Positions 1 to 26,700 of a DNA stretch of 64,000 bases are shown in pieces. Position numbers and translations under genes: made by a program. The stretch lies in NCBI GenBank assembly GCA_036172245.1, contig JAYWIR010000002.1:3844001-3908000 (forward strand), read 5' to 3'. Each line of letters opens with the position of its first letter. The first letter of the stretch is position 1. The stretch comes from Raillietiella orientalis (Eukaryota). Below the pieces are notes generated by a model that worked only from the letters and a program-made list of their open reading frames with translations, was not told the DNA's origin and did not search any database.

Positions 1-76
1 GGGGGAAAAAGCTTCGCGGCTGCATACCGAGGCAGGAGATTAGCTTCTTTGCGCATCCCGGAAAATAAATCTCTTA

Positions 77-2859: not shown

Positions 2860-3510
2860 GGACTTCCTTTCCTCGGTTCTAAGGGAGTGGCGAGGAACCT
2901 TTCTCTCCCTAAGGGGAAAAAAGGAGGAGGGAGGGTAGGGATCTATGAAGCTCTTCAACACTGTCCACACCACCCGAAGGCGCGCGCGACCCTTCACGTT
3001 ATTGGGGGTCATGCCACGGCAGGATCGCCCTGTGAATCCGAAAAGGTCCCAGAGGAAGGAGTCCGTTCCTTTCTCACGCGTGAGAGGACTGGGGGGACCC
3101 TCGTCCTGGTTGTCTTCGCAGGGACGACCGGAGGCAAAGACGCTCCCCATTTCTTCTCCGATGGCAACTCGACAAACCCACGCTCCCGAATTTTCCGTCC
3201 GGACGGCGCACCCGGATCGAGTCCGCCCCTTGTTTTTTCTCGCCTGAAGAGAGCCCCGAAGGGACGCCTTTCCGAAGCGAGCAGAGCGCTTCCGGCGCTC
3301 CGGAGGTGAAACTTCCGGGGGGAGCATCAACCGTCACACCACGACGGAGGGAGCCCTCCCTGAGAACGGAGCCCTCCATGTTCCACGACCGGAGGGGAAC
3401 CCCGAAGAGCTCCTTCATGCCCTGGAAAGAAACCGGGCGGTCGACTTCCAATCCCGGAGGCCGGCTCCCGGGGGCATCCGAGGGTTTCCGGCTTCCGCCG
3501 GTGAGCGCCT
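2860..3510 (+). repeat. Unclassified dispersed repeat, family B
   Basis: Shares ggagtccgttcctttctcacgc and ggtttccggcttccgccggtg blocks with 35620-36335 and 37740-38254. Mirrored at ~23860-24500. Strand is an arbitrary reference orientation. Confidence 0.7.
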
Positions 3511-3612
3511 CCCGCCCGTTGCCAGGGGCAGTGCGAAACGTCGACGGCCGCCCAGCGCGCGCTCTTCGTTCGCAGCCTTTCGCTCGGCTACCAGGCGACC
3601 ACGCGAAACTCG

Positions 3613-4046
3613 TGCAGGATGCCCTGCGACCAGCCGCTGCCCTGGCCGCACTTTGCTGCGTCCGTGGGATCGTGACGTGCTGGAGCGACGTAAGAAGACC
3701 GAGCCACGACAGGGATGCCGTCGAACTTGCAGTCCGCTACCTGCGGATTGCGACCAGATGGCCCCACCTGGGAATCATACGGACGGACCTCGAGGGCATC
3801 CTGCAAAGGATGGACCCTCCTCCCAGTGGTCAGTGATCCCTCCCCAACCCTCCAAAATCTTTTTGTTTGTTATGTTTTATTTTTCTTTTTGTTTCCCCCC
3901 CCCCCATCCCCTTCCGCTGCCGAGGAGAGTCGCGCCGGTCTGCGTACCGGCAACCTGGCAGGTCCTGTTGAGTTGGCCGTAGTGGGGCCTCGTACCACGA
4001 ATTATAGAGAATTTTTGATAAACGCCCCGGCGTGACCGGGTGGCAA
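3613..4046 (+). mobile_element. 5'-truncated LINE copy (ORF2 C-terminus + 3' UTR) flanked by a 17-bp TSD
   Basis: TSD cgaccacgcgaaactcg at 3596-3612 and 4047-4063. Encodes ALRPAAALAALCCVRGIV...MDPPPS like 15560-15793. Ends gataaacgccccggcgtgaccgggtggcaa. Confidence 0.9.
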
Positions 4047-5992
4047 CGACCACGCGAAACTCGGCTTCGGCCTGGTGCAGCTCGCGCCACGCTCGCACGC
4101 ACGCCACACTCGCGCGCGCGCACCAGCTTCCCCGCCTCCTGCGATCGCTCCTCTGGCGAAGTAGGCGGATGACGCCTGCCGGACCGGTCGAACCACCGGA
4201 CAGACTGCAGTCAGGTGGGGATGGGGTTGGTTTCGAGGGGGCGGGTGATGGCAAGCGCGACGGGAAGCGGGCGAGTTGCGCGCTGGGAGGGGGTGAGTTC
4301 GCTCTCGCTTCCGGTTCGGACGCGGGTGAGTGTGGCACACGGCTGGGATTCGCAATGCGAGTCGAGTGCCGTTCCGAATGGCGTTTCGGAGCAGTTTCTG
4401 CTTGCCCACAGGCACGGCACCCGCGCAAGGTGGGTTCGACGGGAGACTTGCATGCAGCTGCCGCCGACTTGCCGGCTGCTCGAATCGACGCTCGCCTTTT
4501 CCCCTCGAAAACGCTCGGCCTGGTGAGGCGTGGCTGGTGAGGCTGTTCTTGGTGCCACCCGTGACGGAAACAGCACATTTGTCCCGTCCAGGTGCGTTTC
4601 GCATCACGGTGATACCCTTTTCGTCACTTTCGACCCCCTTCCCCTCTCCCCAGGACGAATCCGATTCGGCAAGAGCTTGGAAAGTTTCCGAAAAGAATCC
4701 GGCACCCATCGGAATTGCTTTAGTTCGCTGATGTGAATCCGAGTGGAGACGTTTCATCTGCAATGGAAACTGATAATTTGCATCAGCGTTCCAGCGAATG
4801 CTCGGTGGGAGAGACAGCAAGCATGGAAGAGCGAATCGTCGACCTGTTGCCTTCTTTTTTTTTTTTGTTACAAAAAGAAACAAAAAGCAAAAAAGACAGC
4901 AGCGATGGCCGAGCGATGCACGGCGACGGATGAGAGAATCCATGACGAATTGCGAGTGAACGACAAGCACTTTCTCGGGTCAGGCTGGAAAGGCAACAGC
5001 AAGAAACCTCTGCATGTGATGTGATTATTTGACTCGTCATCAATTCGTCGTCCAGGATTCGTTTTTGTTCTCTCTCTCTCTCTCTCTCTTCCCTATGCGG
5101 AACGATGGCTGGACCCGTGGCTGTCATTTCCCGATGGCTTCCATGTAATGGAGATTTGCATGTGATATTTGATGGAAACGGGGAGACGCACGACGGCTGC
5201 TGTGCAACCTCTACGAATCCCCCCGGTGGACTTGAAGGAACCGCCTGCTCGGCAATCCGGCAGGGGTTGCATCGAGCCGTTTCCGGGGTGCGGGCTTCTC
5301 CTCTCTGAACGGCTGAGGGATTCTCGTCAAAGAGCACCGCGTGGGCGTTGTCGGAGGATTTGCGGAGGTCTGCGTGAGGGGGGCACTCTTGTGACACCCA
5401 CCCTCCTTCGCTGCCCGTTGCACCGAGTTGGCTTGCAAAGTGCCAATCCTTGCGTTTGGACCTTCGAAATGCGGTGCTCGACCCTGCAGGTTTCCCCTTG
5501 GGGGGCGGCAAGCAAAAGTACGGACGGAAAAAAGCACCCGGTCACGACTTTCCTAGGCAATCGAAAGCAGTCGTGTGCACTCGAAGGGTAGATTTTCGAA
5601 TTCAGGAATACCGTCGCGGAAGTTGCGTTGCCGAAAGGTGTTTTCCTGAGCGTTGCCAGGGATCGCTGACTCTGGAGGAAGGCCAGCGTGCACCGTGTTG
5701 GGGGTGGTGGGGGGGGGGGGGGCATGTCTCCACGATGACGAACGTGGAGGTCGGCATGGCGTTGGAGACGAACACGGCTTTTGCGACGAGTCGCTCGCTG
5801 CACTCCTTTGAACATCGTGCCGGAAGTGCTCACGGCGGTGGCAATGCCTTTCTGCTTGCGTGCGGTGCGCGCCAAGGTGTTGGCAGAAGGACGGTGGTCG
5901 CTGCTGCTGCCGCCGCCGCCACCGTTCCAAGTTGGCGGCCGTCCGCACGCAGCCCGAGTTGCGGGCGAAGAGCAGCATGGTGAGGGGATGAC

Positions 5993-7825
5993 ATGATCAA
6001 GAAAGGGGATTACGTGTTTGTGAAGCGAGGGGAAGTTACCAAATTGTGTCAGGTTCGACACGAAAGTCAGTAAGTGGGGAAGTTGGTTCCTGCACGATCG
6101 TGAATTCGTGCCACTTCGTTGCAGAACGAGCCAGATCTTGAAAGACAAGATTCGCATTGGCGAATTACTGCACTGCCCGTATGGATCCTCCTTCAAGTTG
6201 GTAAAAGATGCAAAAGAAAACGTTTATAATTTGCAACCGTTGTATGGAGACGCGGAAAACAACATTTCGTCAGGTATTTGAAGGCTGTCTGTTTTGACGG
6301 TAAACCGTACGGGTTGGGGAAAAAAGTGCCACGAGCAGTTTGCCCGTATCTGCATGAGAGGATCGGTTTCATTCGGACCAGGGTAGAGTGTGAGTGAATG
6401 GCTGATCAGCGACTCGTTCCGATGTGCAAACGGAACTTTGCAGTCTTGAACGAAATTTCTTTTGGGATCGCACTGTTTCTTGGAGGAACACACTCCCCAC
6501 TGTGTTTTCCCCATACGAGGGATTCAACTGATTCAATTTGCCATCGTCTCAAAGTGGTGTGCGCATTTGATTTCGTCGATGGAATGCATCCCTATTTAAT
6601 TATGTGAACCCATTTATGCGGCAGATTCTTTTTCCAACTCGAAAGACGTGTTCATCCGAGCCATGATGAGGTCTTCATTGATTTCTTTGTTGAAATATGA
6701 TTCCAGTACCTGGAAAAGCTTTTGGATCTGATAACAGAAACATCATAGATACTCATGGAAAGTCGCAAAAACTAGGGCAAGAGGACATTTTGGCTTTGAA
6801 AGAGCAAGGGTTCATAGGAGATGCCATGGTGGAACATCTGGTTGAAAACAGCAGTACTTATTTAGGAAAAACCGATTTGGCACAAGAAAAATATGTTCGG
6901 AAAAAAAAGAAAAAGTACCACGATGCCGTTGATGTTTTGCATCCTTCCATCGCTCTCCTGTGCATGCACTTATACCAGCAAGATCCTCAGAGCATCCTGT
7001 AAGTTGTGAATGCTGTAATTTGATGGGATTGATCATGTGTGCAGTAATCTGCGAGTGGACACCCTGTCTCAGATGATCTGTTTCTCCAATCTGATGCCTG
7101 GATGTCAGTACTTAGTGTTTGAGTGTGGCTGCATGGGACTCGTGGTGGCAGCTTTGCTCGATAGATTGGGCCAGCACAGCACATTGACTCATATTCATTC
7201 AGAGAGCAAACCAAGCAGGCAAGTGTGCATCAGGTGTGTGCCTGATTGTTGTCGTCTCTCTAGACCTGCATTGCAGATGATGAATTTTGACAGCAAGCAT
7301 CTAGAGCAGCTGCATACTGTTTCGTTAGATGTCTTTGTGAAAGAGTTGGTCCAGTGCCAATCTGCTGTTCCTTTGGATGCTACACATGCTGGTATGCCTT
7401 TGTGTATTGAAGGTACGAGGTAGTCTCCTTACCACACAAAGATTGCCCGGATGTTCAGAAACGTGCAACAGAAACTTACCCTACTAAGCAGTACGATGGA
7501 TTGGTGATTGCTTGCAGGCAGCATCCGGTCAGGATCCTCCCAGTTCTTGTCAGCAGTCTGGCATTGTCCCGACCCTTTGTTATCTTCAATCCTTACGTTG
7601 AAGTGAGTGGATATTCCATGTTTCACTCCTTATCACAGAAAAGCATTGCAGCCGTTGATTGATTGTTATACGCTGTTGCGTAAAAAAAAGTTAGCCGTTT
7701 TGATGAAGCTGACAGAATCCTGGTTGCGTGAATACCAAGTTTTGCCAGAAAGGACACACCCATGTGTAAACATGAGTGGTGGAGGAGGGTATTTGTTGAC
7801 AGGAATCCGTGTCAGCCCAGACTGA
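5993..7825 (+). CDS. TRMT6: tRNA (adenine(58)-N1)-methyltransferase non-catalytic subunit TRM6/Gcd10, copy 1 (about 7 exons)
   Basis: Exons ~5993-6069, 6125-6273, 6707-6998, 7045-7218, 7264-7391, ~7442-7603, ~7652-7825 give MIKKGDYVFVKR...PYGSSF, DNRNIID...QKLGQEDI...FIGDAMVEHLVENSSTY...QEKY..KKKKKY, LRVDTLSQM, DGLVIACRQHP...SRPFVIF and WLREYQVLPERTHP..NMSGGGGYLL, all typical of TRM6. Confidence 0.93.
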
Positions 7826-8627
7826 GTCTTTTCATTTGTCAGTGGCAACAGGATGTTTGTGCAAGGAAAAGAAATGCATTCCAATAAACAGCCTGGTTTC
7901 CTCTTTTGGAATCTGCCCCAATTTGTTTACTACTTTGCAGGTGAATGTGCATGCTTGTTCCCAATTGCTTTGAAAGAAGCGTGTTTGCAAGTGAAGATGA
8001 TGATTTCCTAATGTTATGAAATTCACCCAGTGATGCAAAAGAATCAGGATGTTAACATGGCATTGTCTTTAAAAGCTCGCTTTCCTCTCTGCGTGGAAGA
8101 AAGTCCGTCAGTGTGGGAGCCTTTTTTCTGATTTCCCATGTAAAAGATGGGAGGAAGGAAATGGTGAAGAAGAAATTTTCAAACTCTCAAGCTAACTGGT
8201 GGAAAACACTTTTTCAAAAACTTGTTCTTGGATGTTTTTGCTTGTACATTGTACTCCCTTTCTTGTGCTATCAATGAGTTACCTTGGCAACATCATTACA
8301 TCTTAGTTTAGTGCAGAACTTTGGAAATGTGGATGCTTGCAGCTTCTGCTTCCAACTGTAAAAAGGAACTTTTGCCTGGCATTCGAGTGTGTTGCGTTTG
8401 TGCACCTGCATCTGGTCTATGTGATTGGAAAGATTGGTTTCTGAGGCTGCAATATTTCCTAAACACCGAGTAAGCTGCTGTTTGCTGCGTCGATGGGACC
8501 TGTGTGCTCACCAGCAAGCATGTAAGGGTAAAACCATTTGAGCGTTCGTTTTTGTATGGCATGCATTGTGAAATCGCTCAGTAGATTTTAAACAACTATT
8601 GACATTGGTGTTGCGCTCTAAAAGAGG

Positions 8628-8678
8628 TCAACTGCACTTCCTATTGCTACATGATGTAGCAGTAGGAAGTGCAGTTGA
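8628..8678. repeat. 51-bp near-perfect palindrome (hairpin)
   Basis: tcaactgcacttcctattgctacat-g-atgtagcagtaggaagtgcagttga: 25-bp arms with one T.G mismatch. Duplicated at 18692-18742. Confidence 0.9.
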
Positions 8679-9151
8679 TCCGAAACTCTCTCCTGGAATT
8701 GCATCCGGCGTTGTGATCCGATAGAAGTTTTGGTAGTTCGTGGTTTTCCTTAAGTGCGGGAGTATGGAAGTGCAGTTTGCTTTTTGTGAATACATGCTGG
8801 AAAGTGTGTATTGCAGAGGGGAATTTAGAGGACTCTTATTCCCATGGGAGAAAGAAATGGTGCTACCGCCCGCTCCATCAGTTGCAAAAGTTTCACTGTA
8901 CTTCAGAAACTGACGAAAGGACTGTTGCCTGCTCTTGTCAGAAGAATGCATTCTTGTATGTTTTAGCATTCTTATGGTGTTTGTACTTACTCCATGCTTG
9001 GGAAGATCCTTCATGATTGTGAGAGATCTACTTGCAGCTGGGAATTGGTAAAGCGCTACCGCACACCTTCTTGACACCATCATCAGCTGCCTAACTGCGC
9101 AAAACAATTTTGGGGTGTGTCCCATCTTAGTGGCTATTGGCCTTAGGATGA

Positions 9152-10880
9152 TTATCACCCAGTGATGCCGGAGCATTTATTACGTTTCGTAATGAAAATG
9201 CATTTTTGTATTGGAACCGTTGGCTCTATCACGCTCAGCGAACCAGCCGAAGACCGGTACGCGCACTGGCGAGGTCCGCTTCTTCAATGTGGGGGTAGGG
9301 AAAACAAGACACACAAAAAATGTCAAAAAGACACACAGACACACAAAGCAAAGCAGGAGAGGGGATTTTTACACAGGGAGGGGTGGGGAACCGAGGAATG
9401 GACCATGGTTCACTTCTAGGTGTTCTCGGCATCCAGTTCCAGTGGTATATAGAAGGATGTATCATCTGGTTGGTTTGGACTATTTGTAGAATTTCGTTTT
9501 GTGTGTAAGGATGGTTTCATATAGGAACCTTCCCAGAGTGGTGATTCCTTATCTTGCACTTGAAGGAACCTGTCATGATATCAATGCCTCTTTCTTTTTG
9601 TTGTTTCATCTTATCTCAATGCTACTTTTCACAATGCTATTGTGAAGAAAACTATTCTCTTCATTGTATTGTAGGTGTGTATGTTTTCAACCCCCTTGAA
9701 TAGGCTGCTGAGTCCTTCAGTTCTTTTATTTTATCATCTTAATTCAGAAACCTGATTGCTTGTCAGTCCTTACACATATGGTGTGGCAAGTGTATAAGTA
9801 TTGCTTCATTTGGTTTCCCAAGTGAAAAGGAAAAGTGGAAGATGAAGAATCAATCCAGAAACATGAAGGATAGTTAGTTGGAAAAGAATGGTTGCTTCTC
9901 TGTGGTGGTAGTGTTCGGATTCTTAGTTACTGCAGCAGAATCATGAAACATTTCCTGGAGAACATGGAAATGTCCCTTGGCAGTTTGTACGTCTCCTTCA
10001 TTTTTTTCCAAGCTTTGGAGCACCGACATGCAACTGAACCTCTGTGTTCACCTCTTGACAGGCAAGATATCTGGCTGTGTGCAATCAGAGGGTAAAGGGC
10101 GGGGTTAGCGTTTATCAATATGTCGTGTGCCTCCAACAATATATCCATGCATCTACCCAAGATTCCCAAATCGATTCCCAGGTGCCCTGCCTACTGTGTG
10201 GTGCACTTCTTTTGTCAGCAAAAACTCCACCAGGGTCTTGACAAGATGTAGTTGAGAGGTGCATTTGTCCTATTGGTATTGGCAGAAAACTGTTGGTTTT
10301 CCTTCTCATCCTGCCTACTTCCACAAGAACAGATGTAATTGCTGATGTAGTGTCCAGATTGTGTCAACAGAGTCCATTTTCCTGCATTCATTTGTCCAAC
10401 ATAACCAGTCCTAGGCCAAACACTTGACAAGTCTCTCCCAGTCTTTCCTTTGTTGGAAGCACCATCTCCAGTCTCGATTCTGTGGCACCCACTCTGTATG
10501 GGTCAGTTGCGATGATTGTATCTCAAAGAATTTTTCAACACACTCCGAGGAGTCCCTTGTGGATCCATGTAGTAATGGGTGAAGCTGAACCCCAGTGGCA
10601 TCTTGGTGGTATTCCTCTTCCATCCACCTGCATGCGCTCTCGTGAAGTTTCCCCCATCTCAATGCATTTCTTTGCTTTTGGGTTAACCAGGACAAATGAT
10701 GGGAGGATGGAAAGGGCTGTTGACATGGCAGTTGCGTATGGGCAGTCTGCATGCGAATGATTGTGGAATGAAGTTACCATCAGATAGCAAAATGCAAGGG
10801 AGAGGTCTTTTCGACGAGTCCTGTCCCCTAGGTAGACGAGTGTCCCCTTGGTGGGGATGAGGGTTGAGCTGCATTTCCGT
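9152..10880 (-). mobile_element. Old, CpG-decayed LINE copy (3' terminus at ~9152)
   Basis: Terminal motif aataaatgctccggcatcactgggtgataa on the minus strand at 9152-9181. Minus-strand peptides ALYPLIAHSQISCLSRG (~ALQPAAAVAALCCIRG) and TWIHKGLLG (~RYIPKGLL). The 5' extent is uncertain. Confidence 0.6.
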
Positions 10881-12899
10881 GGCCTTTTGCAGACAGTTAG
10901 CTAGGGCATGAAGTTTCCGCAGGGGAGATCAGTGTCTACCTGACCTCGAGGGAATAGGAGAGCCCCTTCGAGCCAACCTAGAACAGGGATGCTCCTGAAA
11001 GCATCTTTCCCCTCCCGTACCCGGCGAACATCTGCAAGGAGGCTCTGTTCTATCGCTTCAGGTGGATTGATGAACACGCGTGAAGACAAGAAAAGTGGAC
11101 CTTCTTACGTTAATTTTCTGTTATCTGCAGATATGCAGCTCGGGAACAAAGATGGAGCGTACGCTCGTGGTGTGATCTTCATGTACTCGCTTATCAACAG
11201 CATGCAAACCGATATCCAAAGCACCTAATCCACACATAATAGCATTCGCTCTTTGCGTCAGAACGACCACTACTTGCATTTGTTTTGACACCACTCATCA
11301 TATGCGTCTTTGCCGAACACTCCTCTCCTCTGAACACTCCATTCCCAACAGAGGCTCGATTTCTCAGCAGCTTCGGATGACATCCATTATCAAACTGCAA
11401 GCGAAGCTCCATGTGTTTAGCATTTGAAGTTGTTCCTTTACCTACTAGGAATCTTTCAATCTTCAGTAAAAATTCTTATCATAACAAGAGTGCGGAGAGT
11501 TGGCAACCGTGGAACCTGGGCTCAGCAACTTACCTGAAAGTGAAAGAGGCAACCCTTAAGGCTTAAAGGCAGCATTAATCCGAACATGCAAAGACTTTCC
11601 AGGTGATAAAGACTTTTAGGCAAGTTTCGATGCTCATTCTTTCCCCTTATTTATCTTTATTATCTGAATTATTATGGATTCTTGAGTTGCCACCGGAGCC
11701 GTTTCTCGGGATCTGTTGAGCACTTTAGATTCTTATTTCTCTTGCAAAACGATCGTTTACATAAGACTTTTTCTCCTTCATCGGATGCAACAAAGAGCTT
11801 TGTGAATAAAAGGTGACGTGTTGCTACTCTAAGTTGATGTCTCTCTCACGGATCATCACAGTATCATTGCTTGGAGTTTCTGAACCGTAGAATGGGCCTT
11901 GCATAATTGTGCCTGGAATTAGCACAAACACCTCTGAAAACGCTCATACAAAACAAACTCGTTCTAATGCGTTTCTAAAAGCGTTCTGTTCTTTCGAAAG
12001 TGCCATTGCATTTGTCTGAATTTGATGGCTTGAGAATATAACAATCATGAATGGCAACTGTGGATTGTCTTATGAGCATGAAAAAAAGGTGCGATCAGAA
12101 CTTGTATGCTGCAGAAGGGCTGTCGCAGCTTCATCTCAACTTGAGATTCACTAGCATCTCACTAGCACGAAAACCAGCGAATGTGAACATTCGCTTTAGA
12201 GCATCACTATGCCATCTTTATCCAATCGTGTCCTCCCTTCTCTTGCAAATCGTGCAAGACAGAAAGAGGGATGGCCATCCCTCTTCACTAATGTCGGTTT
12301 ATGGAACATACCTTGCCCAGTTCCGAGGCTGCTTTACAGAGTTGGAGCCCACGGCTACACTTTTGGTTGGAGCGGCTAAAGCAAAGCGCGTTGGTCTTAA
12401 CGCCGATAGCAAAACAAAAGTTAGAACTTGCTCATCTTCGACAAAAGCGTAAGCTAAATCCTTTTTTTTTTTTCTGCGATCACGCAAGAGTAAGCTAAAG
12501 GATTAAGCTCTATTTTAAATCAGTTCTTTTCCTGGTGGTTCCGCAAATAGAACAGCATAAGAGTGATTCAGAATGAAATGGAAAGTGCTAACATAAGAGA
12601 AAAATCGATGATGGCTGCGATAAAACGTGCAAGAGTGAAGTTGGTGAGAGCCTGTCGGTGTGTGCTACTCCGAAAGATGGTATCAGTATAATTTGTGAAG
12701 CTCTTCTGAGCTTCCAAACATAAATGGCTCAGTTGCTTTCAAGATATGGGTATAAATTGATTAGGAAAACTTCCTATCCTTTCACAGCGCTAAATTTAGC
12801 TTTAGTATTGAAGATGTCGTAATTGTGGAATACTTTTGAGTAGAAGCACTGATGCCATTGCTCGAAGGATAAGCATGGATACACATCGCTACATCTGGC

Positions 12900-13170
12900 T
12901 GGTTCAAAAGAGCTGGCTCCTCCCTCGGGATTTCCCCTCCAGTTTCGGGAAGCAGAAGCTACCGAGAAATTGGAAGTGTTTCCTTTGTCGTTCCTCCAGA
13001 GGAGTCGATCAGAAGCGCTTTCCTTCCGCATTACCTTGGGAAAGAATAAGGACGAGATCCTTCAGAGGCAAACAGAACGATAATTCCTTCCAAAGAGTAA
13101 AGAGGAGACGGACTCTAGCCTCGTAATCCTTCCTAGGTATTATTAGGGTGGCCCCTTCAGGGTTTCTCCC
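12900..13170 (-). repeat. Family B repeat fragment
   Basis: Reverse complement contains gaaaccct...gccaccctaa and gagtccgtctcctc, matching other family B copies. Confidence 0.5.
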
Positions 13171-14954
13171 TAAATGCATCACATGCACCCTCGTGTGGTG
13201 TCACAGCGAAAAGAAATATGTAAGCATTGTCAAGATGCTATGATGCCCTTGTGGATCAAGCAATAGTTCTTGAGTATTTAGCAAATCAAAAAAAAAAAAC
13301 GAAAAACAAAAAAGGCTGGAAGTAAAGCAACAACTAGAAGAACCCAAAGGATTCCCATCATCCTGGGGATCGGACGTGTTGTTTTCTCGCTCCCGGATGG
13401 TGGGTGTTTACTTAATTAATAAGTGAGGGTGAGGTTGTGGAGACTCGGTGGTGGCAAAGGCAGCAATGCCTGACCCACCACCAAGGAAGGTCAGGAGGCG
13501 GTGTCCGCATCGATTCCTCAGGCTATCGAAGTGGGGGAATCCACCTTCACAGAATCGTCCCTCGCACCAGCAAGGGCATGGAACGCCGTGGCTGCGGCTC
13601 TGTCGCCTGCAGCAATGGCAGAACAAAGAAACTACATCGAGTACAACCCATCTCTCTTCTATAAGGTAGGCAATTTGTATTCTCTCAAGAGCGCGAGTGC
13701 CTTTTTGAAGACTGCACGCTCTTAATGTGCCTCAAGAGGAGCTTCTCGCCCTCACCATATGAAGTGAGGGTCAGTTCGTTGAACTGATCTGCAAGGACCT
13801 GATCTTCAGGTGTAGCTCCACGACTTTGAGGACTCTCTTTGTGTTGCGAGACAGGAAGCTCCTCCTGATCACGATGGACCGCTCTATAATGGTCCATCTA
13901 CTCGGCATAACGTTCCGGATGAGCAAAGATGCCGTCCGGAACGAAAGTGAAAAATTCGAAACGGTACACGCGCTAGCCCTCTACCTTCGTATGGATTTCC
14001 TGGCAGCGAGAATCACCGTTCGCGAGGGCTGTGAGTTGCCCCACATACTGCAAGGGAATCAGTGGACTTGTAGTACGTGAGGAAACCCAAGTACTGCGGC
14101 TTTTGCAGCTCTTCGGGTTACCCCAAAAAGAGGTGCCCGAATATTCAATGCCAGCAGTGCGGAATCACGGACTACACCCAAAACGTGTGCCCTCAATGTA
14201 TCATGCGCGACGTTCCCGCCGAAAAAAAAAAAAAAAAAAAAAAGGGAGAACGCGTGGTTAAAACAAAAGAAAAACAAAAACCGGGAAACTCGGTAAAGCG
14301 TCTATTACACCGCCAACCAAAAAGGCTACGCAGTCCTCTGCTTCAGGGGAAACTGAGCATGCCGGGGACGCATACGAAGAGGCTGGATGGACGCTGGTCG
14401 TGAGCAGGAAAAACAAGGCGAAGAAAACCTATACGAAAAGAAGGCGGGACTCCTCACCGGAGAAAGTCTCGCGCTTCGAGCCGAGGAGGCAATAGAGACC
14501 GAAGGGAGCGCCAATTGTCCCCTATTGCTGGAGGCTACCCATCCCTGCGCGGGCGGTATTCCACCGCCAGTTTCCTAGGAGTAAATCCCGGGATCTCTTC
14601 TCGCCACCGGCTACGCGTGGCCTATTGGAACGTAAACGGACTGTGCGACGGCGGCAAGAGACGGGACATAACCTCCACTCTGAGAGACTTTGACCTGGTG
14701 CTGTTGCAGGGGATCCACGTGACCCCCACGCCCACGAAATCGAGAGAATCGCTGGTGGTAGCCTGCTCTGGGGTTGCGGTTCCCTCCGCTCCTGAGGAGT
14801 GGCCTTCCTGCTGGAGCCGGCCGTCGACGCAGCCAGACAGGGCGTGCTCTTCGACGAGGACGGTCGAGTTGGACGGCTTGTGGTCAAGTGGTCTGACACG
14901 ATTGACCTCGTCATCATGAACGTGTACACTCTCAGCGGCAATTGGGCCTACTTA

Positions 14955-16088
14955 AACAAAAAGAAAAACAAAAATCAAAAATAAATAAAGGAACTGGGGA
15001 GAGCGCGGGAAGGGATCACAGTCTGCTGGGTGGATCCGTCATTTCCTCTGGAGGATGACGGCAAGCTCTTCCTGAATGCTGACTTCCAGGTGGGGCCACA
15101 GCGTCGCCGTCCTCAGGAAGCGGAGGGCATATTCGCTGGCATCTTATCGCTGGGTCCTCCCGTCGCGTTGCTCCATGCAGCGACGATCCCGCGTAGGCAG
15201 CACAGGACTGCTAGCGAGACCGCTGGCGGAAGGGGGTCGCGAACGATAGGGGGTCTGATAGCGGCCTTGGAGTTGCCTCCGAAGGTTCCCACAGCCGCGG
15301 CAAAGCATTCCCAGAGAGGCCTGAGAGCAACACAGTCCACTAACAGGTGGGATTGCATTGGGGCCTGCTCTGCAACGCGCGCTGCTTCCACTGGACCCGG
15401 GGGAGAGTGAATCCTGAGTGTGCCCGGTGTGGGGAGAGGGAATCGCTCCCCCACCTTCTTGTTGACTGTGCTGCCCTCCGACCCCTGTGGGAACGGTTTG
15501 GGACGACCCTAGGGCTCCCTACGGGCAGCGCGCCCAGAGACGTTTTCCGCCTCCTCTTCGTGCGGGACGCCCTGCAGCCAGCCGCAGCCGTGGCAGCATT
15601 ATGCTGCATCCGTGGCATCGTGGCGGCGTGGAGTGATAGACGCGACGAAGATGTGGACCAGAACGAGAGGGACGTCATCCCGTATGCTGTTCGCTTCCTG
15701 ACGAGAGCTTCTGGATGGCCCCAGCTGGGTACAATTCGGATGGACTCAAAGGGCTTCCTTCGAAGGATGGGCCCTCCTCCCAGTGCAGAGTGATCCCTTC
15801 CCAGCCCTCCAACTTCTTTTTGTTTTCCTTACTTTTCATTTTTCTTTTTGTTTTCTCCCCCATCCCTTCCACTGCCGAGGAGAGCCACGTCGGGCTGCGT
15901 CCCGGCAGGTCCGGTGTTGTGTGGCCGTTAGTGGGGCCTGGTACCACGTTAGTGGAATGTTTTTTTAATAAACGCCCCGGGATTACCCGGGTGGAAATAA
16001 CAGGTGGGGTGGGATTCTCGCTCCCCGCACCTAACACAGTTAGGGTCGACACCTCACCGAGTCCAGTGGTGACGGCGTGCGTTGCACG
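14955..16088 (-). mobile_element. Antisense LINE 3' fragment inserted in the larger element, itself interrupted
   Basis: Minus strand reads CNARRHHWTR*GVDPNCVRCGERES (16088-16009), then HLLVDCVALRPLW...AVLCCLRGIV...WPHLE (15351-15060), then a T-rich 3' UTR. Confidence 0.85.
15352..15997 (+). mobile_element. 5'-truncated LINE copy with 11-bp TSD
   Basis: TSD taacaggtggg at 15341-15351 and 15998-16008. Encodes the CCHC-type finger CARCGERESLPHLLVDC. Ends aataaacgccccgggattacccgggtggaaa. Confidence 0.9.
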
Positions 16089-19000
16089 GAAGACCCCAAT
16101 GCAGCACCAACAGCGCCGACCGAAGATCCTATCACGGTGGCGGAGGTCATCTCCGCCATCGGAAAGCTCAAGAGGCGGAAAGCACCAGGAGAGGACGGTC
16201 TGCCTGAGGATTTCTACCAAGGCTTCGCGGCAGAGCTTGCCGCTCTGGCACATCGGCTATGCACATTGATTCGTGAACCGAGCTCCTGGAACGCATAGGA
16301 TTCCCGGCATTCTTCTTGGCCTATCTGTGTTCCTCCTGGAGTTTCGCACTCGTTAACGTCTGTTTCAACGTCCGGCACGTGAATGGTGTGTCAGTTCGCG
16401 GCGGCGTAAGGCAAGTTGACAGCCTGAGCCCCCTGCTCTTCAGCATCTACTTCGAGTTGGTGCTGAGAGCAAAAAGGGGGACTCTGGCAGCCCTGCTGAG
16501 CTCGTGTCCGGAAACGTTTTCCGAGTCGATTTATGCAAACGATCTTCTGCTGCTAATCCCCATGTCCACCCCGGCGTCTGCACTCAAGCGCTTCTTCGAG
16601 TTGCTCAGCCTCGGGACTGGACTGTGGTGAACAGGGAGAAGTCGTACATAGTGTCGGTAGGTGCGATGAGGGTCGGACGGTCGGACTGGAATCCACTTGG
16701 GAATCCCCACGGGCGGGTGCTCTAAATACCTTGGCGTTCCGTTGGGGGACTTCTGCGTAGCGGAAACCAGGTCCGACCGTCTTAAAAAGGTAGAGTTGGC
16801 GATCGGCCCGTTCCAGAACGGCAAGTTTTGCTTACCGGAACGGGCCACGGTGTGCAACTCGTTTGTGGATCCCCTCCTCCGCTCCCTGCTTTTTGTTTGC
16901 CACGCCCCACCAAATGTCAAGAGGAAGACCGAGGACCTCCTCAGAAGAGTCTTACTCAGGAAGTCCAGAGTCTGTCTCAAAGACTTGTGTGCTCCGCGCA
17001 GGGATGATGGACTGGGCCCGCTTACAATGGAAATGATGGAGCGTCAGCTCCAATTCAGAAGACTTACTCTAGCGGCGCGAGTATGGACCACGTCCGGGTG
17101 CAGGCCAGAACGGCACCTCGCAAAGAGCGCAACCGGCCGCGAGCAACTCACATCCTTCCTCGTCGCTCGCGAGAGATTGCCGAGGCGTTGCGGATACCAA
17201 CTCCACCAGATGGTTGCCCTGGTGGAGAACACCTCGATCTCCTGCCTCCCCGAGAACTGGACTGCCTGGCTCCAGGAGTCGGTTTGCGCCCGAAGAAAGA
17301 ACGGCGCGAGCGAGGCGTGGTACGCCTGCCTGCAGCGAGACATGAACACTCGCAGGTCGTTGGAGGAGATCGTCCGTAACCCGGAGAATATGCGGTGAAC
17401 TCTTCTACCCCCCTTGCCATAGTGCTGCCTTCCATAACAGACGCAAGGGACAGCGTGATCCCGGCAAGGTGGGAAGTGACGCACAGAAGCGGAGACGAAA
17501 CTTCTGGGCAACTCGGGAGGTGACGGACAACTGAGACCCCGAGTGTCTCACCCCAATTTCACGCTGGGGAGAGCTGGTCGGTATCCCACCGGAGTATGTG
17601 AACTGGGCTCCAGCGTGCTGGTACAGTGCAACCCTCCCACTGAAGTGGTAGGAATTGGCGTTTCTGGACTCGCAAGGGAGAATCTCGTGCAAGCGCACCT
17701 TCATCAGTCTGGACAAGGGGGAGTATGGATGCCGTTCAGTGTGGCAGGTACGGGAAGGAAACACTCCCGCACCTGCTGTTGAACTGTGCTGCCCTCCGAC
17801 CATTTGGGATTGCCTCGCGAGCATCCTAGCAATCCCAGCGGGCGGCCCCAGAACATTTGGAAACACCTCTTCGCGCGTGGTGCCTCTGCCTTCAGCTCAG
17901 TTCCTCGTAGTTCCCTGCTGCGTCCGCGGAACCGTGGCGGCCGGGGACGCGGGAAGGAGAGGTCGGAATAGCAGAGACACCCCTCCACCCCTCCCCGTGT
18001 AAAAATCCCCTCTCCTGCTTTGCTTTGTGTGTCTGTGTGTCTTTTTGACATTTTTTGTGTGTCTTGTTTTCCCTACCCCCACATTGAAGAAGCGGACCTC
18101 GCCAGTGCGCGTACCGGTCTTCGGCTGGTTCGCTGAGCGTGATAGAGCCAACGGTTCCAATACAAAAATGCATTTTCATTACGAAACGTAATAAATGCTC
18201 CGGCATCACTGGGTGATAATCATCCTAAGGCCAATAGCCACTAAGATGGGACACACCCCAAAATTGTTTTGCGCAGTTAGGCAGCTGATGATGGTGTCAA
18301 GAAGGTGTGCGGTAGCGCTTTACCAATTCCCAGCTGCAAGTAGATCTCTCACAATCATGAAGGATCTTCCCAAGCATGGAGTAAGTACAAACACCATAAG
18401 AATGCTAAAACATACAAGAATGCATTCTTCTGACAAGAGCAGGCAACAGTCCTTTCGTCAGTTTCTGAAGTACAGTGAAACTTTTGCAACTGATGGAGCG
18501 GGCGGTAGCACCATTTCTTTCTCCCATGGGAATAAGAGTCCTCTAAATTCCCCTCTGCAATACACACTTTCCAGCATGTATTCACAAAAAGCAAACTGCA
18601 CTTCCATACTCCCGCACTTAAGGAAAACCACGAACTACCAAAACTTCTATCGGATCACAACGCCGGATGCAATTCCAGGAGAGAGTTTCGATCAACTGCA
18701 CTTCCTACTGCTACATCATGTAGCAATAGGAAGTGCAGTTGACCTCTTTTAGAACGCAACACCAATGTCAATAGTTGTTTAAAATCTACTGAGCGATTTC
18801 ACAATGCATGCCATACAAAAACGAACGCTCAAATGGTTTTACCCTTACATGCTTGCTGGTGAGCACACAGGTCCCATCGACGCAGCAAACAGCAGCTTAC
18901 TCGGTGTTTAGGAAATATTGCAGCCTCAGAAACCAATCTTTCCAATCACATAGACCAGATGCAGGTGCACAAACGCAACACACTCGAATGCCAGGCAAAA

Positions 19001-19544
19001 GTTCCTTTTTACAGTTGGAAGCAGAAGCTGCAAGCATCCACATTTCCAAAGTTCTGCACTAAACTAAGATGTAATGATGTTGCCAAGGTAACTCATTGAT
19101 AGCACAAGAAAGGGAGTACAATGTACAAGCAAAAACATCCAAGAACAAGTTTTTGAAAAAGTGTTTTCCACCAGTTAGCTTGAGAGTTTGAAAATTTCTT
19201 CTTCACCATTTCCTTCCTCCCATCTTTTACATGGGAAATCAGAAAAAAGGCTCCCACACTGACGGACTTTCTTCCACGCAGAGAGGAAAGCGAGCTTTTA
19301 AAGACAATGCCATGTTAACATCCTGATTCTTTTGCATCACTGGGTGAATTTCATAACATTAGGAAATCATCATCTTCACTTGCAAACACGCTTCTTTCAA
19401 AGCAATTGGGAACAAGCATGCACATTCACCTGCAAAGTAGTAAACAAATTGGGGCAGATTCCAAAAGAGGAAACCAGGCTGTTTATTGGAATGCATTTCT
19501 TTTCCTTGCACAAACATCCTGTTGCCACTGACAAATGAAAAGAC

Positions 19545-21377
19545 TCAGTCTGGGCTGACACGGATTCCTGTCAACAAATACCCTCCTCCACCACTCATGT
19601 TTACACATGGGTGTGTCCTTTCTGGCAAAACTTGGTATTCACGCAACCAGGATTCTGTCAGCTTCATCAAAACGGCTAACTTTTTTTTACGCAACAGCGT
19701 ATAACAATCAATCAACGGCTGCAATGCTTTTCTGTGATAAGGAGTGAAACATGGAATATCCACTCACTTCAACGTAAGGATTGAAGATAACAAAGGGTCG
19801 GGACAATGCCAGACTGCTGACAAGAACTGGGAGGATCCTGACCGGATGCTGCCTGCAAGCAATCACCAATCCATCGTACTGCTTAGTAGGGTAAGTTTCT
19901 GTTGCACGTTTCTGAACATCCGGGCAATCTTTGTGTGGTAAGGAGACTACCTCGTACCTTCAATACACAAAGGCATACCAGCATGTGTAGCATCCAAAGG
20001 AACAGCAGATTGGCACTGGACCAACTCTTTCACAAAGACATCTAACGAAACAGTATGCAGCTGCTCTAGATGCTTGCTGTCAAAATTCATCATCTGCAAT
20101 GCAGGTCTAGAGAGACGACAACAATCAGGCACACACCTGATGCACACTTGCCTGCTTGGTTTGCTCTCTGAATGAATATGAGTCAATGTGCTGTGCTGGC
20201 CCAATCTATCGAGCAAAGCTGCCACCACGAGTCCCATGCAGCCACACTCAAACACTAAGTACTGACATCCAGGCATCAGATTGGAGAAACAGATCATCTG
20301 AGACAGGGTGTCCACTCGCAGATTACTGCACACATGATCAATCCCATCAAATTACAGCATTCACAACTTACAGGATGCTCTGAGGATCTTGCTGGTATAA
20401 GTGCATGCACAGGAGAGCGATGGAAGGATGCAAAACATCAACGGCATCGTGGTACTTTTTCTTTTTTTTCCGAACATATTTTTCTTGTGCCAAATCGGTT
20501 TTTCCTAAATAAGTACTGCTGTTTTCAACCAGATGTTCCACCATGGCATCTCCTATGAACCCTTGCTCTTTCAAAGCCAAAATGTCCTCTTGCCCTAGTT
20601 TTTGCGACTTTCCATGAGTATCTATGATGTTTCTGTTATCAGATCCAAAAGCTTTTCCAGGTACTGGAATCATATTTCAACAAAGAAATCAATGAAGACC
20701 TCATCATGGCTCGGATGAACACGTCTTTCGAGTTGGAAAAAGAATCTGCCGCATAAATGGGTTCACATAATTAAATAGGGATGCATTCCATCGACGAAAT
20801 CAAATGCGCACACCACTTTGAGACGATGGCAAATTGAATCAGTTGAATCCCTCGTATGGGGAAAACACAGTGGGGAGTGTGTTCCTCCAAGAAACAGTGC
20901 GATCCCAAAAGAAATTTCGTTCAAGACTGCAAAGTTCCGTTTGCACATCGGAACGAGTCGCTGATCAGCCATTCACTCACACTCTACCCTGGTCCGAATG
21001 AAACCGATCCTCTCATGCAGATACGGGCAAACTGCTCGTGGCACTTTTTTCCCCAACCCGTACGGTTTACCGTCAAAACAGACAGCCTTCAAATACCTGA
21101 CGAAATGTTGTTTTCCGCGTCTCCATACAACGGTTGCAAATTATAAACGTTTTCTTTTGCATCTTTTACCAACTTGAAGGAGGATCCATACGGGCAGTGC
21201 AGTAATTCGCCAATGCGAATCTTGTCTTTCAAGATCTGGCTCGTTCTGCAACGAAGTGGCACGAATTCACGATCGTGCAGGAACCAACTTCCCCACTTAC
21301 TGACTTTCGTGTCGAACCTGACACAATTTGGTAACTTCCCCTCGCTTCACAAACACGTAATCCCCTTTCTTGATCAT
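19545..21377 (-). CDS. TRMT6: TRM6/Gcd10, copy 2 (inverted duplicate)
   Basis: Exon ORFs are identical in translation to copy 1 (20368..20673, 19947..20333, 19545..19763). ATG at 21377-21375. Confidence 0.92.
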
Positions 21378-23323
21378 GTCATCCCCTCACCATGCTGCTC
21401 TTCGCCCGCAACTCGGGCTGCGTGCGGACGGCCGCCAACTTGGAACGGTGGCGGCGGCGGCAGCAGCAGCGACCACCGTCCTTCTGCCAACACCTTGGCG
21501 CGCACCGCACGCAAGCAGAAAGGCATTGCCACCGCCGTGAGCACTTCCGGCACGATGTTCAAAGGAGTGCAGCGAGCGACTCGTCGCAAAAGCCGTGTTC
21601 GTCTCCAACGCCATGCCGACCTCCACGTTCGTCATCGTGGAGAAATGCCCCCCCCCCCCCCCACCACCCCCAACACGGTGCACGCTGGCCTTCCTCCAGA
21701 GTCAGCGATCCCTGGCAACGCTCAGGAAAACACCTTTCGGCAACGCAACTTCCGCGACGGTATTCCTGAATTCGAAAATCTACCCTTCGAGTGCACACGA
21801 CTGCTTTCGATTGCCTAGGAAAGTCGTGACCGGGTGCTTTTTCCGTCCGTACTTTTGTTTGCCGCCCCCCAAGGGGAAACCTGCAGGGTCGAGCACCGCA
21901 TTTCGAAGGTCCAAACGCAAGGATTGGCACTTTGCAAGCCAACTCGGTGCAACGGGCAGCGAAGGAGGGTGGGTGTCACAAGAGTGCCCCCCTCACGCAG
22001 ACCTCCGCAAATCCTCCGACAACGCCCACGCGGTGCTCTTTGACGAGAATCCCTCAGCCGTTCAGAGAGGAGAAGCCCGCACCCCGGAAACGGCTCGATG
22101 CAACCCCTGCCGGATTGCCGAGCAGGCGGTTCCTTCAAGTCCACCGGGGGGATTCGTAGAGGTTGCACAGCAGCCGTCGTGCGTCTCCCCGTTTCCATCA
22201 AATATCACATGCAAATCTCCATTACATGGAAGCCATCGGGAAATGACAGCCACGGGTCCAGCCATCGTTCCGCATAGGGAAGAGAGAGAGAGAGAGAGAG
22301 AACAAAAACGAATCCTGGACGACGAATTGATGACGAGTCAAATAATCACATCACATGCAGAGGTTTCTTGCTGTTGCCTTTCCAGCCTGACCCGAGAAAG
22401 TGCTTGTCGTTCACTCGCAATTCGTCATGGATTCTCTCATCCGTCGCCGTGCATCGCTCGGCCATCGCTGCTGTCTTTTTTGCTTTTTGTTTCTTTTTGT
22501 AACAAAAAAAAAAAAGAAGGCAACAGGTCGACGATTCGCTCTTCCATGCTTGCTGTCTCTCCCACCGAGCATTCGCTGGAACGCTGATGCAAATTATCAG
22601 TTTCCATTGCAGATGAAACGTCTCCACTCGGATTCACATCAGCGAACTAAAGCAATTCCGATGGGTGCCGGATTCTTTTCGGAAACTTTCCAAGCTCTTG
22701 CCGAATCGGATTCGTCCTGGGGAGAGGGGAAGGGGGTCGAAAGTGACGAAAAGGGTATCACCGTGATGCGAAACGCACCTGGACGGGACAAATGTGCTGT
22801 TTCCGTCACGGGTGGCACCAAGAACAGCCTCACCAGCCACGCCTCACCAGGCCGAGCGTTTTCGAGGGGAAAAGGCGAGCGTCGATTCGAGCAGCCGGCA
22901 AGTCGGCGGCAGCTGCATGCAAGTCTCCCGTCGAACCCACCTTGCGCGGGTGCCGTGCCTGTGGGCAAGCAGAAACTGCTCCGAAACGCCATTCGGAACG
23001 GCACTCGACTCGCATTGCGAATCCCAGCCGTGTGCCACACTCACCCGCGTCCGAACCGGAAGCGAGAGCGAACTCACCCCCTCCCAGCGCGCAACTCGCC
23101 CGCTTCCCGTCGCGCTTGCCATCACCCGCCCCCTCGAAACCAACCCCATCCCCACCTGACTGCAGTCTGTCCGGTGGTTCGACCGGTCCGGCAGGCGTCA
23201 TCCGCCTACTTCGCCAGAGGAGCGATCGCAGGAGGCGGGGAAGCTGGTGCGCGCGCGCGAGTGTGGCGTGCGTGCGAGCGTGGCGCGAGCTGCACCAGGC
23301 CGAAGCCGAGTTTCGCGTGGTCG

Positions 23324-23757
23324 TTGCCACCCGGTCACGCCGGGGCGTTTATCAAAAATTCTCTATAATTCGTGGTACGAGGCCCCACTACGGCCAACTC
23401 AACAGGACCTGCCAGGTTGCCGGTACGCAGACCGGCGCGACTCTCCTCGGCAGCGGAAGGGGATGGGGGGGGGGGAAACAAAAAGAAAAATAAAACATAA
23501 CAAACAAAAAGATTTTGGAGGGTTGGGGAGGGATCACTGACCACTGGGAGGAGGGTCCATCCTTTGCAGGATGCCCTCGAGGTCCGTCCGTATGATTCCC
23601 AGGTGGGGCCATCTGGTCGCAATCCGCAGGTAGCGGACTGCAAGTTCGACGGCATCCCTGTCGTGGCTCGGTCTTCTTACGTCGCTCCAGCACGTCACGA
23701 TCCCACGGACGCAGCAAAGTGCGGCCAGGGCAGCGGCTGGTCGCAGGGCATCCTGCA
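23324..23757 (-). mobile_element. Mirror copy of the TSD-flanked LINE fragment at 3613-4046
   Basis: Part of the right arm, with the same TSD on both sides, so the insertion predates the duplication. Confidence 0.88.
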
Positions 23758-26700
23758 CGAGTTTCGCGTGGTCGCCTGGTAGCCGAGCGAAAGGCTGCGA
23801 ACGAAGAGCGCGCGCTGGGCGGCCGTCGACGTTTCGCACTGCCCCTGGCAACGGGCGGGAGGCGCTCACCGGCGGAAGCCGGAAACCCTCGGATGCCCCC
23901 GGGAGCCGGCCTCCGGGATTGAAAGTCGACCGCCCGGTTTCTTTCCAGGGCATGAAGGAGCTCTTCGGGGTTCCCCTCCGGTCGTGGAACATGGAGGGCT
24001 CCGTTCTCAGGGAGGGCTCCCTCCGTCGTGGTGTGACGGTTGATGCTCCCCCCGGAAGTTTCACCTCCGGAGCGCCGGAAGCGCTCTGCTCGCTTCGGAA
24101 AGGCGTCCCTTCGGGGCTCTCTTCAGGCGAGAAAAAACAAGGGGCGGACTCGATCCGGGTGCGCCGTCCGGACGGAAAATTCGGGAGCGTGGGTTTGTCG
24201 AGTTGCCATCGGAGAAGAAATGGGGAGCGTCTTTGCCTCCGGTCGTCCCTGCGAAGACAACCAGGACGAGGGTCCCCCCAGTCCTCTCACGCGTGAGAAA
24301 GGAACGGACTCCTTCCTCTGGGACCTTTTCGGATTCACAGGGCGATCCTGCCGTGGCATGACCCCCAATAACGTGAAGGGTCGCGCGCGCCTTCGGGTGG
24401 TGTGGACAGTGTTGAAGAGCTCCGTGGGCCCTCCTCCTTAGGGTGGCGAGAAGGGTTTCGGTAGATGGGGAAATAAAAGAGGAAAAGTCCAAGAAAATAA
24501 AAGTGTGAAGAATAGCTGGTGGATGGAATGTTGAGAAGGTCTTCCAGTCCTTTCGCGTGAGCACTGGTTGTGACCTCGTCTACCAGCTGGTCCATTTTTC
24601 TGAATTTTATATTTGAATTTTTAACCCTGTGTTTTCCTTGAGTGTACCACACTGATTGCACTGCTTGGTAGCAGGTACTCCTAGATTCGAACGAATGTGC
24701 TTGGGAGTGAGATTTCCGCTAAGCATGAATGACCTTTTTCTATGGTATATGTGTTTCACTGTAAATAATATTGCACCATAAGCCGTCTCCTGTCCCCGGA
24801 TGCAAAGGATTCCTTCTCGCTGTCTTCTTTCTTGTCTGCTGTAGCCACGCACATTTACCAAGATGAAATGAACGCTTTTTAAGATAAATAAATAAAAAAA
24901 ATTCGCTGGTTTGATCGTTCACGCACGTTGTTTTCCGGTTCCTGCACCAGGAGTTCACTGGGACGTGAATGCTGAATGTCAACTTTCAGATGTCATTTCA
25001 GATGAAGTCTCCCTGCTGAGATTCAGTCTATGCAATCATTGAACTAATGCGAACGAAACTATCGAAAAATTCCAATGAAGCCAGATTCTATTTTAATCCT
25101 TATTAAGTTATTGCTGAATTCGTCTTGTCGTGGCCTGAGAAGGAATGCCAGCGAGATCGGGGCTTTCTGAACATAAATTATCGATTTTCTCTGAATCTGA
25201 TTCTAGGTACTCTTTCAAGGAAGCAGGCTTGATCACCAACGATTGCTATCAAGTTAATTAATTCCAAACCCACCCCTAGGAATACCTATGAGAATCACTG
25301 AGACCACATTTGATAGGTCACACCCCCACGTGCAGTCCATCACAAGCTTTCCTCCTGTTTTTCTGACGCCCAACGAAAGAGATGAGTTCGAAAGTGAGTT
25401 TTGGGACGCTGAATTTCGAACTTCCGTATGTCTTATTAGGACCGATCGAAATCATCGATCGAGTTGAATTTAAGAAATATGCGAAAATGATCAGCGCAAT
25501 TGGGATACAAGAAAACTCAAGATTAATTCACTATTCGAGAGTAATTACTGTTTTTCTTTGCCTTCATTCTGTGTATTCGCGTTTCGATGCTAATATGGAT
25601 GAAATTTGAAGTTCCATTATCCAAATGCAGGGAGCCTTCCTGATAAAAGAAAACTACCATAATAATTAAATTGAATTTTTTGTTTTCATAAAATCCACAA
25701 GTTTTCCATAGAGACACATCGGTTAAAAATTCCATTAAATTGTTTCCAGGGTACCTACCCGTTTCTATTGCACGTTGACATAACAGCGTAGAGATAGGGA
25801 TTGCCATCAGAATATACCCATTCAAAATTGCTTATTCTCGAACAATAGCAAACACCACTCGTTCAAAACAAAGCTGACAACAGTTGCCACTAAATGCAGT
25901 TCCATTTATAAGCTATTCCGAATATCAAAAACTGCTTACTTTCCAATCTTGAAAATGATTTCAGAAGTAAAATGAATGCCAATACTCATTAAGGTGCCTA
26001 GTGATACGTAAGAAGAATATTTCGAATGCCATCCTGAGGATAATATAATTTTTTTTTTTTCAAAAATGAATCGCTTAGAAGAAAAGGCAGAAAAATTTGA
26101 GACAGAAATTATGAATTTACTAAGCTGATTTCCTAAGCTCAATTTGGCACATCAGAATTGCTCGGGATCGCAGGTTTACTACATTTGAAAAATCTTTTTC
26201 TAATCCATTCTTAAAGACCGGCAAGGAATCAGTTTTTTGAAAAATTATTAGCAAAAGTTTCTGTAATGAATAATATAGCCTCTCTTCGAAAAACATGCTC
26301 ACTTCGATACAATTTAAAAAAAAATTCTTGAAAACATCCATTGCAAGAATACACGAGAATTTGATGTTTTTATCGCCTCATTCTATCAGAACTCATTTTT
26401 GAATAATTACTGAATTTGGTTCATAGCAACTGTGGTTGGATTACTCTGATAGATTGCCAAAACGAAGGAACTCTATAGTTCATCGTAAAGACAACAAAAA
26501 AAACGATTTATGTTTAAAGGTTATGACAGGAGGGTTCTGTTTACAAAATTTTACAAACTAAGGTGTCCCATAATTTTTAATCTGGCAACAAGAATAATGT
26601 TATCGCTATTTTCTGATATTTCAATGATCTGTGTTATGAACTTAATTATAATCTGGGATAAGACAGAATTTTAGCAAACTGCCCAAATATTTTTTTTAAA

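Follow-up and report, generated by a model that had tools for sequence, protein, structure and literature searches.

The closest described systems for near-identical inverted copies are fold-back inverted duplications (Hermetz et al. 2014, PMC3907307) with their yeast model (PMC10622511), inverted repeats maintained by gene conversion in C. elegans (Zhao et al. 2007, PMC1803023) and on the primate Y chromosome (as cited in PMC5490193), inversion breakpoints with staggered breaks (Ranz et al. 2007, PMC1885836), the 11 gene-bearing palindromes of Folsomia candida and the 17 of Adineta vaga (PMC5490193) and the amplification palindromes addressed by Pacasus (PMC6218980). The locus analysed here, an inverted pair of TRM6 (TRMT6) genes, lies in a stretch of 64,000 nucleotides of the Raillietiella orientalis genome (GCA_036172245.1, contig JAYWIR010000002.1, positions 3,844,001 to 3,908,000, forward strand), referred to in its full length as the window. 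With the fold-back class and its yeast model it shares an inverted copy, a normal-copy spacer and a far end closed at a dispersed repeat, with a candidate short inverted homology at the spacer edge; with the C. elegans repeats and the primate Y palindromes, convergent identical genes, near-perfect arms and a spacer; and with the staggered-break class, an inverted duplication of unique sequence on either side of a single-copy segment. The Folsomia and Adineta cases resemble it as small invertebrates with many intragenomic palindromes, and the Pacasus palindromes as local, inverted, near-identical copies in a long-read assembly. What is new here is that the arm ends lie inside old repeats and that the outer ends fall, in register, in two different copies of one dispersed repeat. 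Judged from sequence, the pair is probably a real, young, interstitial inverted duplication produced by repair synthesis guided by homeologous repeats.

Arms and junctions

Self-BLAST of the window returned the arms as one inverted match of 6439 columns with an identity of 99.876%, five mismatches and three gaps. The left arm (2949-9386, plus strand, 6438 bp) has its reverse complement in the right arm (17985-24421, minus strand, 6437 bp), and the two enclose a single-copy spacer of 8598 bp (9387-17984), exactly the inverted duplication that an earlier sequence-only reading of the window had described. Global alignment confirmed exactly the positions which that reading had given for five substitutions, and closely those for three 1-nt indels, placing the former (left-arm positions, left/right base) at 3448 (C/T), 5512 (G/A), 5726 (G/T), 8616 (C/T) and 9375 (A/G), four of the five being transitions, and the latter at 5528 (A run), 5709 (G run) and 8680. 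The earlier reading had noticed no difference in the TRM6 exons, and the left-arm block 5727-8615, which contains the whole of TRM6, is 100% identical to its mirror. By the majority of the repeat family present at each site, the derived base is carried by the right arm at 3448 (left base in 16 of 18 copies) and by the left arm at 9375 (right base in 6 of 9 copies); since each arm thus appears to hold a derived base, neither would be a simple copy of the other. The substitution density is 0.78 per kb (5 in 6.4 kb). At an animal mutation rate of about 3e-9 per site per generation, the divergence of the arms would be of the order of 100,000 generations, or it would simply be the difference between two alleles.

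All four arm ends fall inside old repeat families. A dispersed repeat, termed r1, makes up the outermost 560 bp of the arm, and the sequence past 2949 and past 24421 continues as r1, in register with other copies. On the left (2850-3509, minus strand, start of the tail approximate) the body of r1 lies within the arm and its tail runs in register past the outer-left junction at 2948/2949, while on the right (23861-24520, plus strand, end of the tail approximate) the same arm body is joined in register across 24421/24422 to the tail of a different r1 copy. The two tails are alike in 21 of 55 columns, below every pair among nine aligned family copies (53-83%), and each ranks the other 7th to 22nd among 28 relatives. 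Because of this low mutual match and these low ranks, the tails are best read as two different old copies, with single tail comparisons near noise, and not as the eroded ends of one old duplication; shared ancestry of the outer flanks was rejected on the same figures.

The inner ends lie in the LINE (long interspersed nuclear element) family r2, whose 3' end forms the last 250 bp of the arm. The left copy (9133-9446, minus strand) runs about 60 bp past the inner-left junction at 9386/9387, this stub agreeing with the r2 family majority at 44 of 60 positions (shuffle maximum 28), and then r2 stops. The inner-right junction at 17984/17985 is spanned by a decayed non-LTR (non-long-terminal-repeat) retrotransposon (16122-18238, plus strand) consisting of a reverse transcriptase fragment (16122-17284) and a 3' region, from which 127-134 bp (about 135 bp) of family sequence are missing at the junction in comparison with the copies L037, L040, L067 and L068. 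The joint lies at a CCAC overlap within the r2 copy pair, four bases being not beyond chance alone. Three of the junctions thus keep the register of a repeat family, and the fourth, inner-right, is a near-register joint of microhomology type inside the family.

Repeat-guided repair synthesis, by template switch or as a long conversion tract, would start from two pairs of old diverged repeats facing each other over about 21 kb, r1 on the outside and r2 on the inside. A break on one side, more likely the right, would let one end prime at a short microhomology in the inverted r2 copy, at a distance of 8.6 kb, after which 6.4 kb would be copied, TRM6 included as a passenger between two repeats, and the other end would be rejoined in register via the r1 pair, the sequence in between being replaced there. 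The steps are plausible in that inverted repeats at most 30 kb apart and at most 25% diverged fold back in single-stranded DNA in yeast (PMC10164571), where inverted duplications are also closed when dispersed repeats recombine (PMC10622511). An inversion between the r1 copies and then an unequal r2 exchange between the two arrangements would lead to the same product, and with one haplotype only the two routes are indistinguishable.

The junctions also bear on an older origin, in which an inverted duplication has been kept near-identical by repeated arm-to-arm gene conversion and the arm ends mark the limits of usable homology (a 135-bp deletion inside, a variable pyrimidine run outside), the two TRM6 genes then being possibly long-standing. 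The arm ends do coincide with breaks in the alignment to the family, a single ancestral r2 copy could supply the body, the 60-bp stub and the 3' end, the eight arm differences are clustered (three adjacent pairs at most 70 bp apart, P 0.013), and conversion between inverted paralogs occurs nearby, in the kinesin pair described below. No gradient is seen in the TRM6 arms, however, since at either end identity drops from 100% to background over no more than 50 bp, and the r1 tails resemble each other no more than they resemble other copies; homopolymer indels account for two of the clustered differences, and the identical 2.9-kb block around TRM6 does not reach significance (P 0.075). Long-term maintenance is therefore held to be improbable. 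Less credible still is an inversion of the spacer with staggered breaks that duplicated the arm, of the type described in Drosophila and without homology at the breaks: the form agrees, non-repetitive sequence being duplicated in inverted orientation around a single-copy segment (PMC1885836), yet it needs one outer junction without homology and both outer flanks continue in-register r1, which largely refutes it and leaves it very improbable. A giant transposon with 6.4-kb terminal repeats was rejected, as the arms end within older repeats and their interior is not repeated anywhere else.

Local inverted pairs and the state of the assembly

Self-comparison of 684 kb was carried out with a threshold of at least 200 bp and at least 90% identity, encompassing 484 kb from contig C2, made up of the window plus flanking sequence and hence non-random, and 200 kb from contig C1. 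The 12 alignments obtained correspond to eight inverted loci, the TRM6 pair included, and two direct ones, all less than 90 kb apart, and this survey contained no near-identical pair beyond 100 kb or between contigs; the same repeat families match at 65-85% at all distances. The inverted pairs measure 0.2-6.4 kb and are mostly 95-99.9% identical. Repeats are touched by 10 of the 24 ends of the six other inverted pairs (one untestable end scored as a miss) against 29 of 400 random positions. A second pair of 99.9% identity (L113:1700-L114:1387, C2:4069700-4079387) has GC-rich arms of 2.9 kb and a spacer of 3.85 kb. Four more local inverted pairs (L059, L060-L061, L056-L057 and L064-L065, on C2, C46 and C3) of 0.5-1.3 kb and 96-99% identity were found via repeat searches and stand outside the unbiased count. 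To the left of the palindrome, window positions 28-1050 and 2.2 kb before the window form a direct duplicate, the copy of which lies 88 kb upstream (1.0 kb at 99.2% and 1.7 kb at 97.7%).

The clearest of the neighbouring pairs consists of two inverted kinesin-motor paralogs (L105:797-4777 and L108:3119-7075; C2:3988800-3992777 and 4021119-4025075), a 3.7-kb pair 28 kb apart and 120-180 kb downstream of the TRM6 locus. Their differences per 300 bp run 28, 31, 13, 11, 3, 4, 0, 0, 1, 0, 0, 0, 1, and the protein identity of their frames rises from 52% (3' frame) through 95% to 99-100% (5' parts). Such a gradient amounts to conversion in vivo between inverted paralogs separated by 28 kb. A graded pair cannot be an artefact, so at least part of the local class of inverted pairs is real.

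The TRM6 locus itself could be an artefact of assembly or library preparation, either a mosaic in which the arrangements of a heterozygous inversion were joined via r2 or a doubly switched amplification chimera, with one TRM6 per haplotype and allelic arm differences. Near-identical local palindromes are very frequent in this assembly, as the survey shows, many short pairs have 100% identical cores, a substitution divergence of 0.08% could be allelic, and whole-genome amplification introduces inverted duplications into assemblies (PMC6218980). The locus lies in mid-contig, however, the window being at 3.84-3.91 Mb of a 7.45-Mb contig in an assembly of 210 Mb and 491 contigs, and its two outer flanks lead into different sequence: a fold-back copy would re-enter the left flank or end the contig, whereas the right arm continues into unique genes, those of RPC34 and C1-THF synthase. 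Two switches would be needed, one of them an in-register switch between copies of only about 70% identity; a derived base seems to be present on each arm; the genome search found no second copy of either flank, the spacer or TRM6 elsewhere in the assembly; and the kinesin pair, being graded, cannot have arisen in this way. An artefact is accordingly considered unlikely, and the evidence leans towards a real rather than a mis-assembled locus.

Several points weigh against the repeat-guided origin. Targeted searches had enriched the repeat library in r1 and r2, and several of the surveyed pairs are themselves repeat fragments. The second 99.9% pair has no repeat at any of its four ends, which means that repeats are not required in this genome. 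The excess of transitions is weak, 8 against 7 transversions over the four pairs of at least 99% identity, the pooled count of 105 transitions and 39 transversions coming mostly from the kinesin pair (72 and 19). Against family copies the r1 tails reach identities of 49-60% (left) and 40-63% (right), near noise for single pairs given that unrelated 300-mers reach 51% under a similar aligner. The donor test leans to the left arm, not significantly (rho 0.26-0.34 and P 0.08-0.18 for the r1 body against the left tail, rho about 0 for the right tail, n 27). Register is lost at the inner-right junction, the old r2 copies are about 75% identical and so at the tolerance limit of the yeast assay, and site 9375, with its polarity based on nine copies, sits 12 bp from a junction. 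Finally, the reality of the pair and its ancestral order rest on a single assembled haplotype.

More tentatively, the local pairs may reflect a short-range copying process unusually active in this lineage, in which old LINE and SINE (short interspersed nuclear element) remains or short homology would serve as entry and exit points and 0.3-20 kb would be overwritten, or duplicated in inverted orientation, within about 90 kb. Such a process could have left hundreds of near-perfect gene-bearing palindromes across the 210-Mb genome, duplicating even genes for housekeeping subunits, TRM6 among them, and homogenising old paralogs like the kinesin pair, and would amount to concerted evolution within ordinary chromosomes throughout the genome, of the kind proposed in asexual animals. 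We regard this wider reading as possible, though doubtful.

TRM6 genes and other features of the window

Each arm holds an open seven-exon TRM6 model of about 390 amino acids without internal stop and with GT-AG splicing, copy 1 at 5993-7825 (plus strand) and copy 2, of the same sequence, at 19545-21377 (minus strand), so the two genes are convergent and intact in frame, as had been read from the letters of the window. The Gcd10p domain (PF04189) was detected in both arms, exons 3 and 4 scoring 91 and 53 bits against a cut-off of 27, and the C-terminal region matches human TRM6 (PDB 5ccb_B) with E 8e-17 for exon 7 and E 7e-4 for exon 6. Exons 1 and 2, searched singly, gave no PDB match, so that the N-terminus of the model depends on its reading frame and splice signals. 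In introns 4 and 5 (7219-7276 and 7392-7441) the exact splice sites are uncertain, the model giving 29 and 30 nt and frame-keeping alternatives about 45-54 nt, with possible GC-AG borders. A search with exon 3 among longer proteins, in itself weak, returned no significant match among 30 candidates. In the genome search Gcd10p matched only two places in the assembly, the two arms, and GCD14 (TRM61) a single locus on another contig. The earlier view of a recently made or recently homogenised inverted pair, with identical TRM6 genes beside a lone TRM61 locus, is supported. A Pfam search of 121 further open reading frames (ORFs) in the left arm and spacer revealed no second gene there, its one match being a sub-threshold chance one.

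TRM6 and TRM61 form a 2:2 complex in which TRM6 is the non-catalytic partner (PMC5372732), and because of this stoichiometry and the single TRM61 locus another TRM6 gene is unlikely to add much activity, the extra copy being probably near-neutral. Long fold-back double-stranded RNA from the arms, suggested by the sequence-only reading, is unlikely, because the mRNAs are of the same sense, an AATAAA signal (7883-7888, plus strand, mirrored in the right arm) lies 58 bases behind the TRM6 stop and about 10 kb of read-through would be required. Flipping of the spacer, also proposed there, would be expected from 6.4 kb of inverted identity, through non-allelic homologous recombination between inverted copies (PMC3449122). 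A limited literature search of titles and abstract starts turned up no case of a duplicated TRMT6, which does not show that none is in print.

Upstream of TRM6, a GC- and CpG-rich region (4060-5992, plus strand) is present only in the two arms, and its ORFs are without Pfam match. A near-perfect hairpin of 51 nt (8628-8678, mirror 18692-18742, z about -9) lies 800 bp past the stop of TRM6, and two of the eight arm differences flank it; a search for copies outside the arms found none. Rfam and ARAGORN gave no match within the window, leaving the hairpin and r1 without a known RNA family. The 3' end of a related LINE-like repeat lies inside the arm (3609-4047, plus strand, mirror 23323-23761). 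In six other places (L005, L038, L041, L047, L048 and L049) r1 stands a few hundred bases upstream of an r2 3' region in the same orientation, and the two together suggest one composite non-autonomous element borrowing a LINE 3' end.

The 8.6-kb spacer had been called LINE-rich. This description fits about 13250-17984, which besides the retrotransposon at the inner-right junction holds further LINE remains (13250-15990, plus strand) with a repeated 5' region, an endonuclease fragment (14593-14927) and a 3' end extending to about 15990. It does not fit the first 3.8 kb (9450 to about 13250), where nothing else matched in the genome search except a short local match at 13066-13198, so that about half of the spacer is LINE-derived. 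The reverse transcriptase fragment matches R2 with E 2e-5 and L1 ORF2p with E 0.002. Its homology and that of the endonuclease fragment are supported by tblastn with four ORF2-like frames of this genome, and when the spacer repeats were tested as non-LTR retrotransposons the RVT_1-positive P0121 was 48% identical; the ESM Atlas gave only unnamed clusters and a weak RVT_1 lead for the LINE ORF.

Near the outer-right junction, at about 24400, the composition shifts from 55-60% GC with a CpG observed/expected ratio of about 1 to 30-35% GC with a ratio of 0.2-0.3 in the region of RPC34 and C1-THF synthase. Further along the window, an inverted 275-bp repeat (36046-36320 and 54168-54441) is 87% identical over a distance of 18 kb. 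For the VGAT gene of the window the best match is a cladoceran protein at 69% identity, the other matches listed reaching 57-66% and the named ones among them being mostly from arthropods, with some molluscs and other protostomes, as expected of an invertebrate that lacks close relatives in the protein database; directly behind the VGAT stop lies a 19-bp tandem array of 10.6 copies (48258-48457).

Meaning and comparison with described systems

Taken alone the locus matters little, as a young duplicate of a non-catalytic subunit that is probably near-neutral, and since local inverted pairs are common in the assembly little surprise is left about TRM6. It is a clean example of junctions that would record a homeologous repeat-guided event, and its diagnostic single-nucleotide differences make it a test case. 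If the TRM6 pair and its siblings are real, they would offer a natural system in which to measure the driving role of dead retrotransposons in local inverted duplication and conversion; if they are artefacts, duplicates of single-copy genes and gene counts taken from this assembly would be unreliable.

Measured against the Pacasus palindromes (PMC6218980), the TRM6 copy is bounded by two junctions, has substitutions on both arms and continues into unique genes, and neither arm is a plain copy running back into its flank or a contig end. The breaks in the class of Ranz et al. 2007 are independent of inverted repeats (PMC1885836), whereas the four ends of the TRM6 pair lie in repeats, three of them in register; independence from inverted repeats was not observed here. 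The Folsomia and Adineta palindromes are blocks of several collinear genes and vary widely in Ks (PMC5490193), in contrast to the short and mostly 95-99.9% identical pairs of 0.2-6.4 kb in this genome. No figure for the orientation of young duplicates was found in the available excerpts of PMC3857721 and PMC3449122.

The age of the C. elegans and primate Y palindromes is shown by orthologous palindromes in other species (PMC1803023, PMC5490193), while the TRM6 pair has abrupt ends and independent repeat flanks and is known from one genome. Its near-perfect arm identity (99.876%) agrees with conversion-maintained palindromes; graded divergence or homologous flanks, found in the kinesin pair, are absent from it, and the kinesin pair fits this class better than the TRM6 pair does. 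The duplications of Hermetz et al. 2014 are large, pass through a dicentric stage and end in a terminal deletion, translocation or ring (PMC3907307), whereas the TRM6 pair measures 6.4 kb and is interstitial, with both flanks on the same contig. The inverted copy and normal-copy spacer of that class were both found, and of its terminal deletion, translocation or ring there is no sign at a position of 3.85 Mb in a 7.45-Mb contig with a single-copy right flank, although a translocation is conceivable. The TRM6 pair works like a fold-back or template-switch duplication but is not a member of the Hermetz class; it belongs to a known type of rearrangement, and the genome-wide habit is of more interest than the locus.

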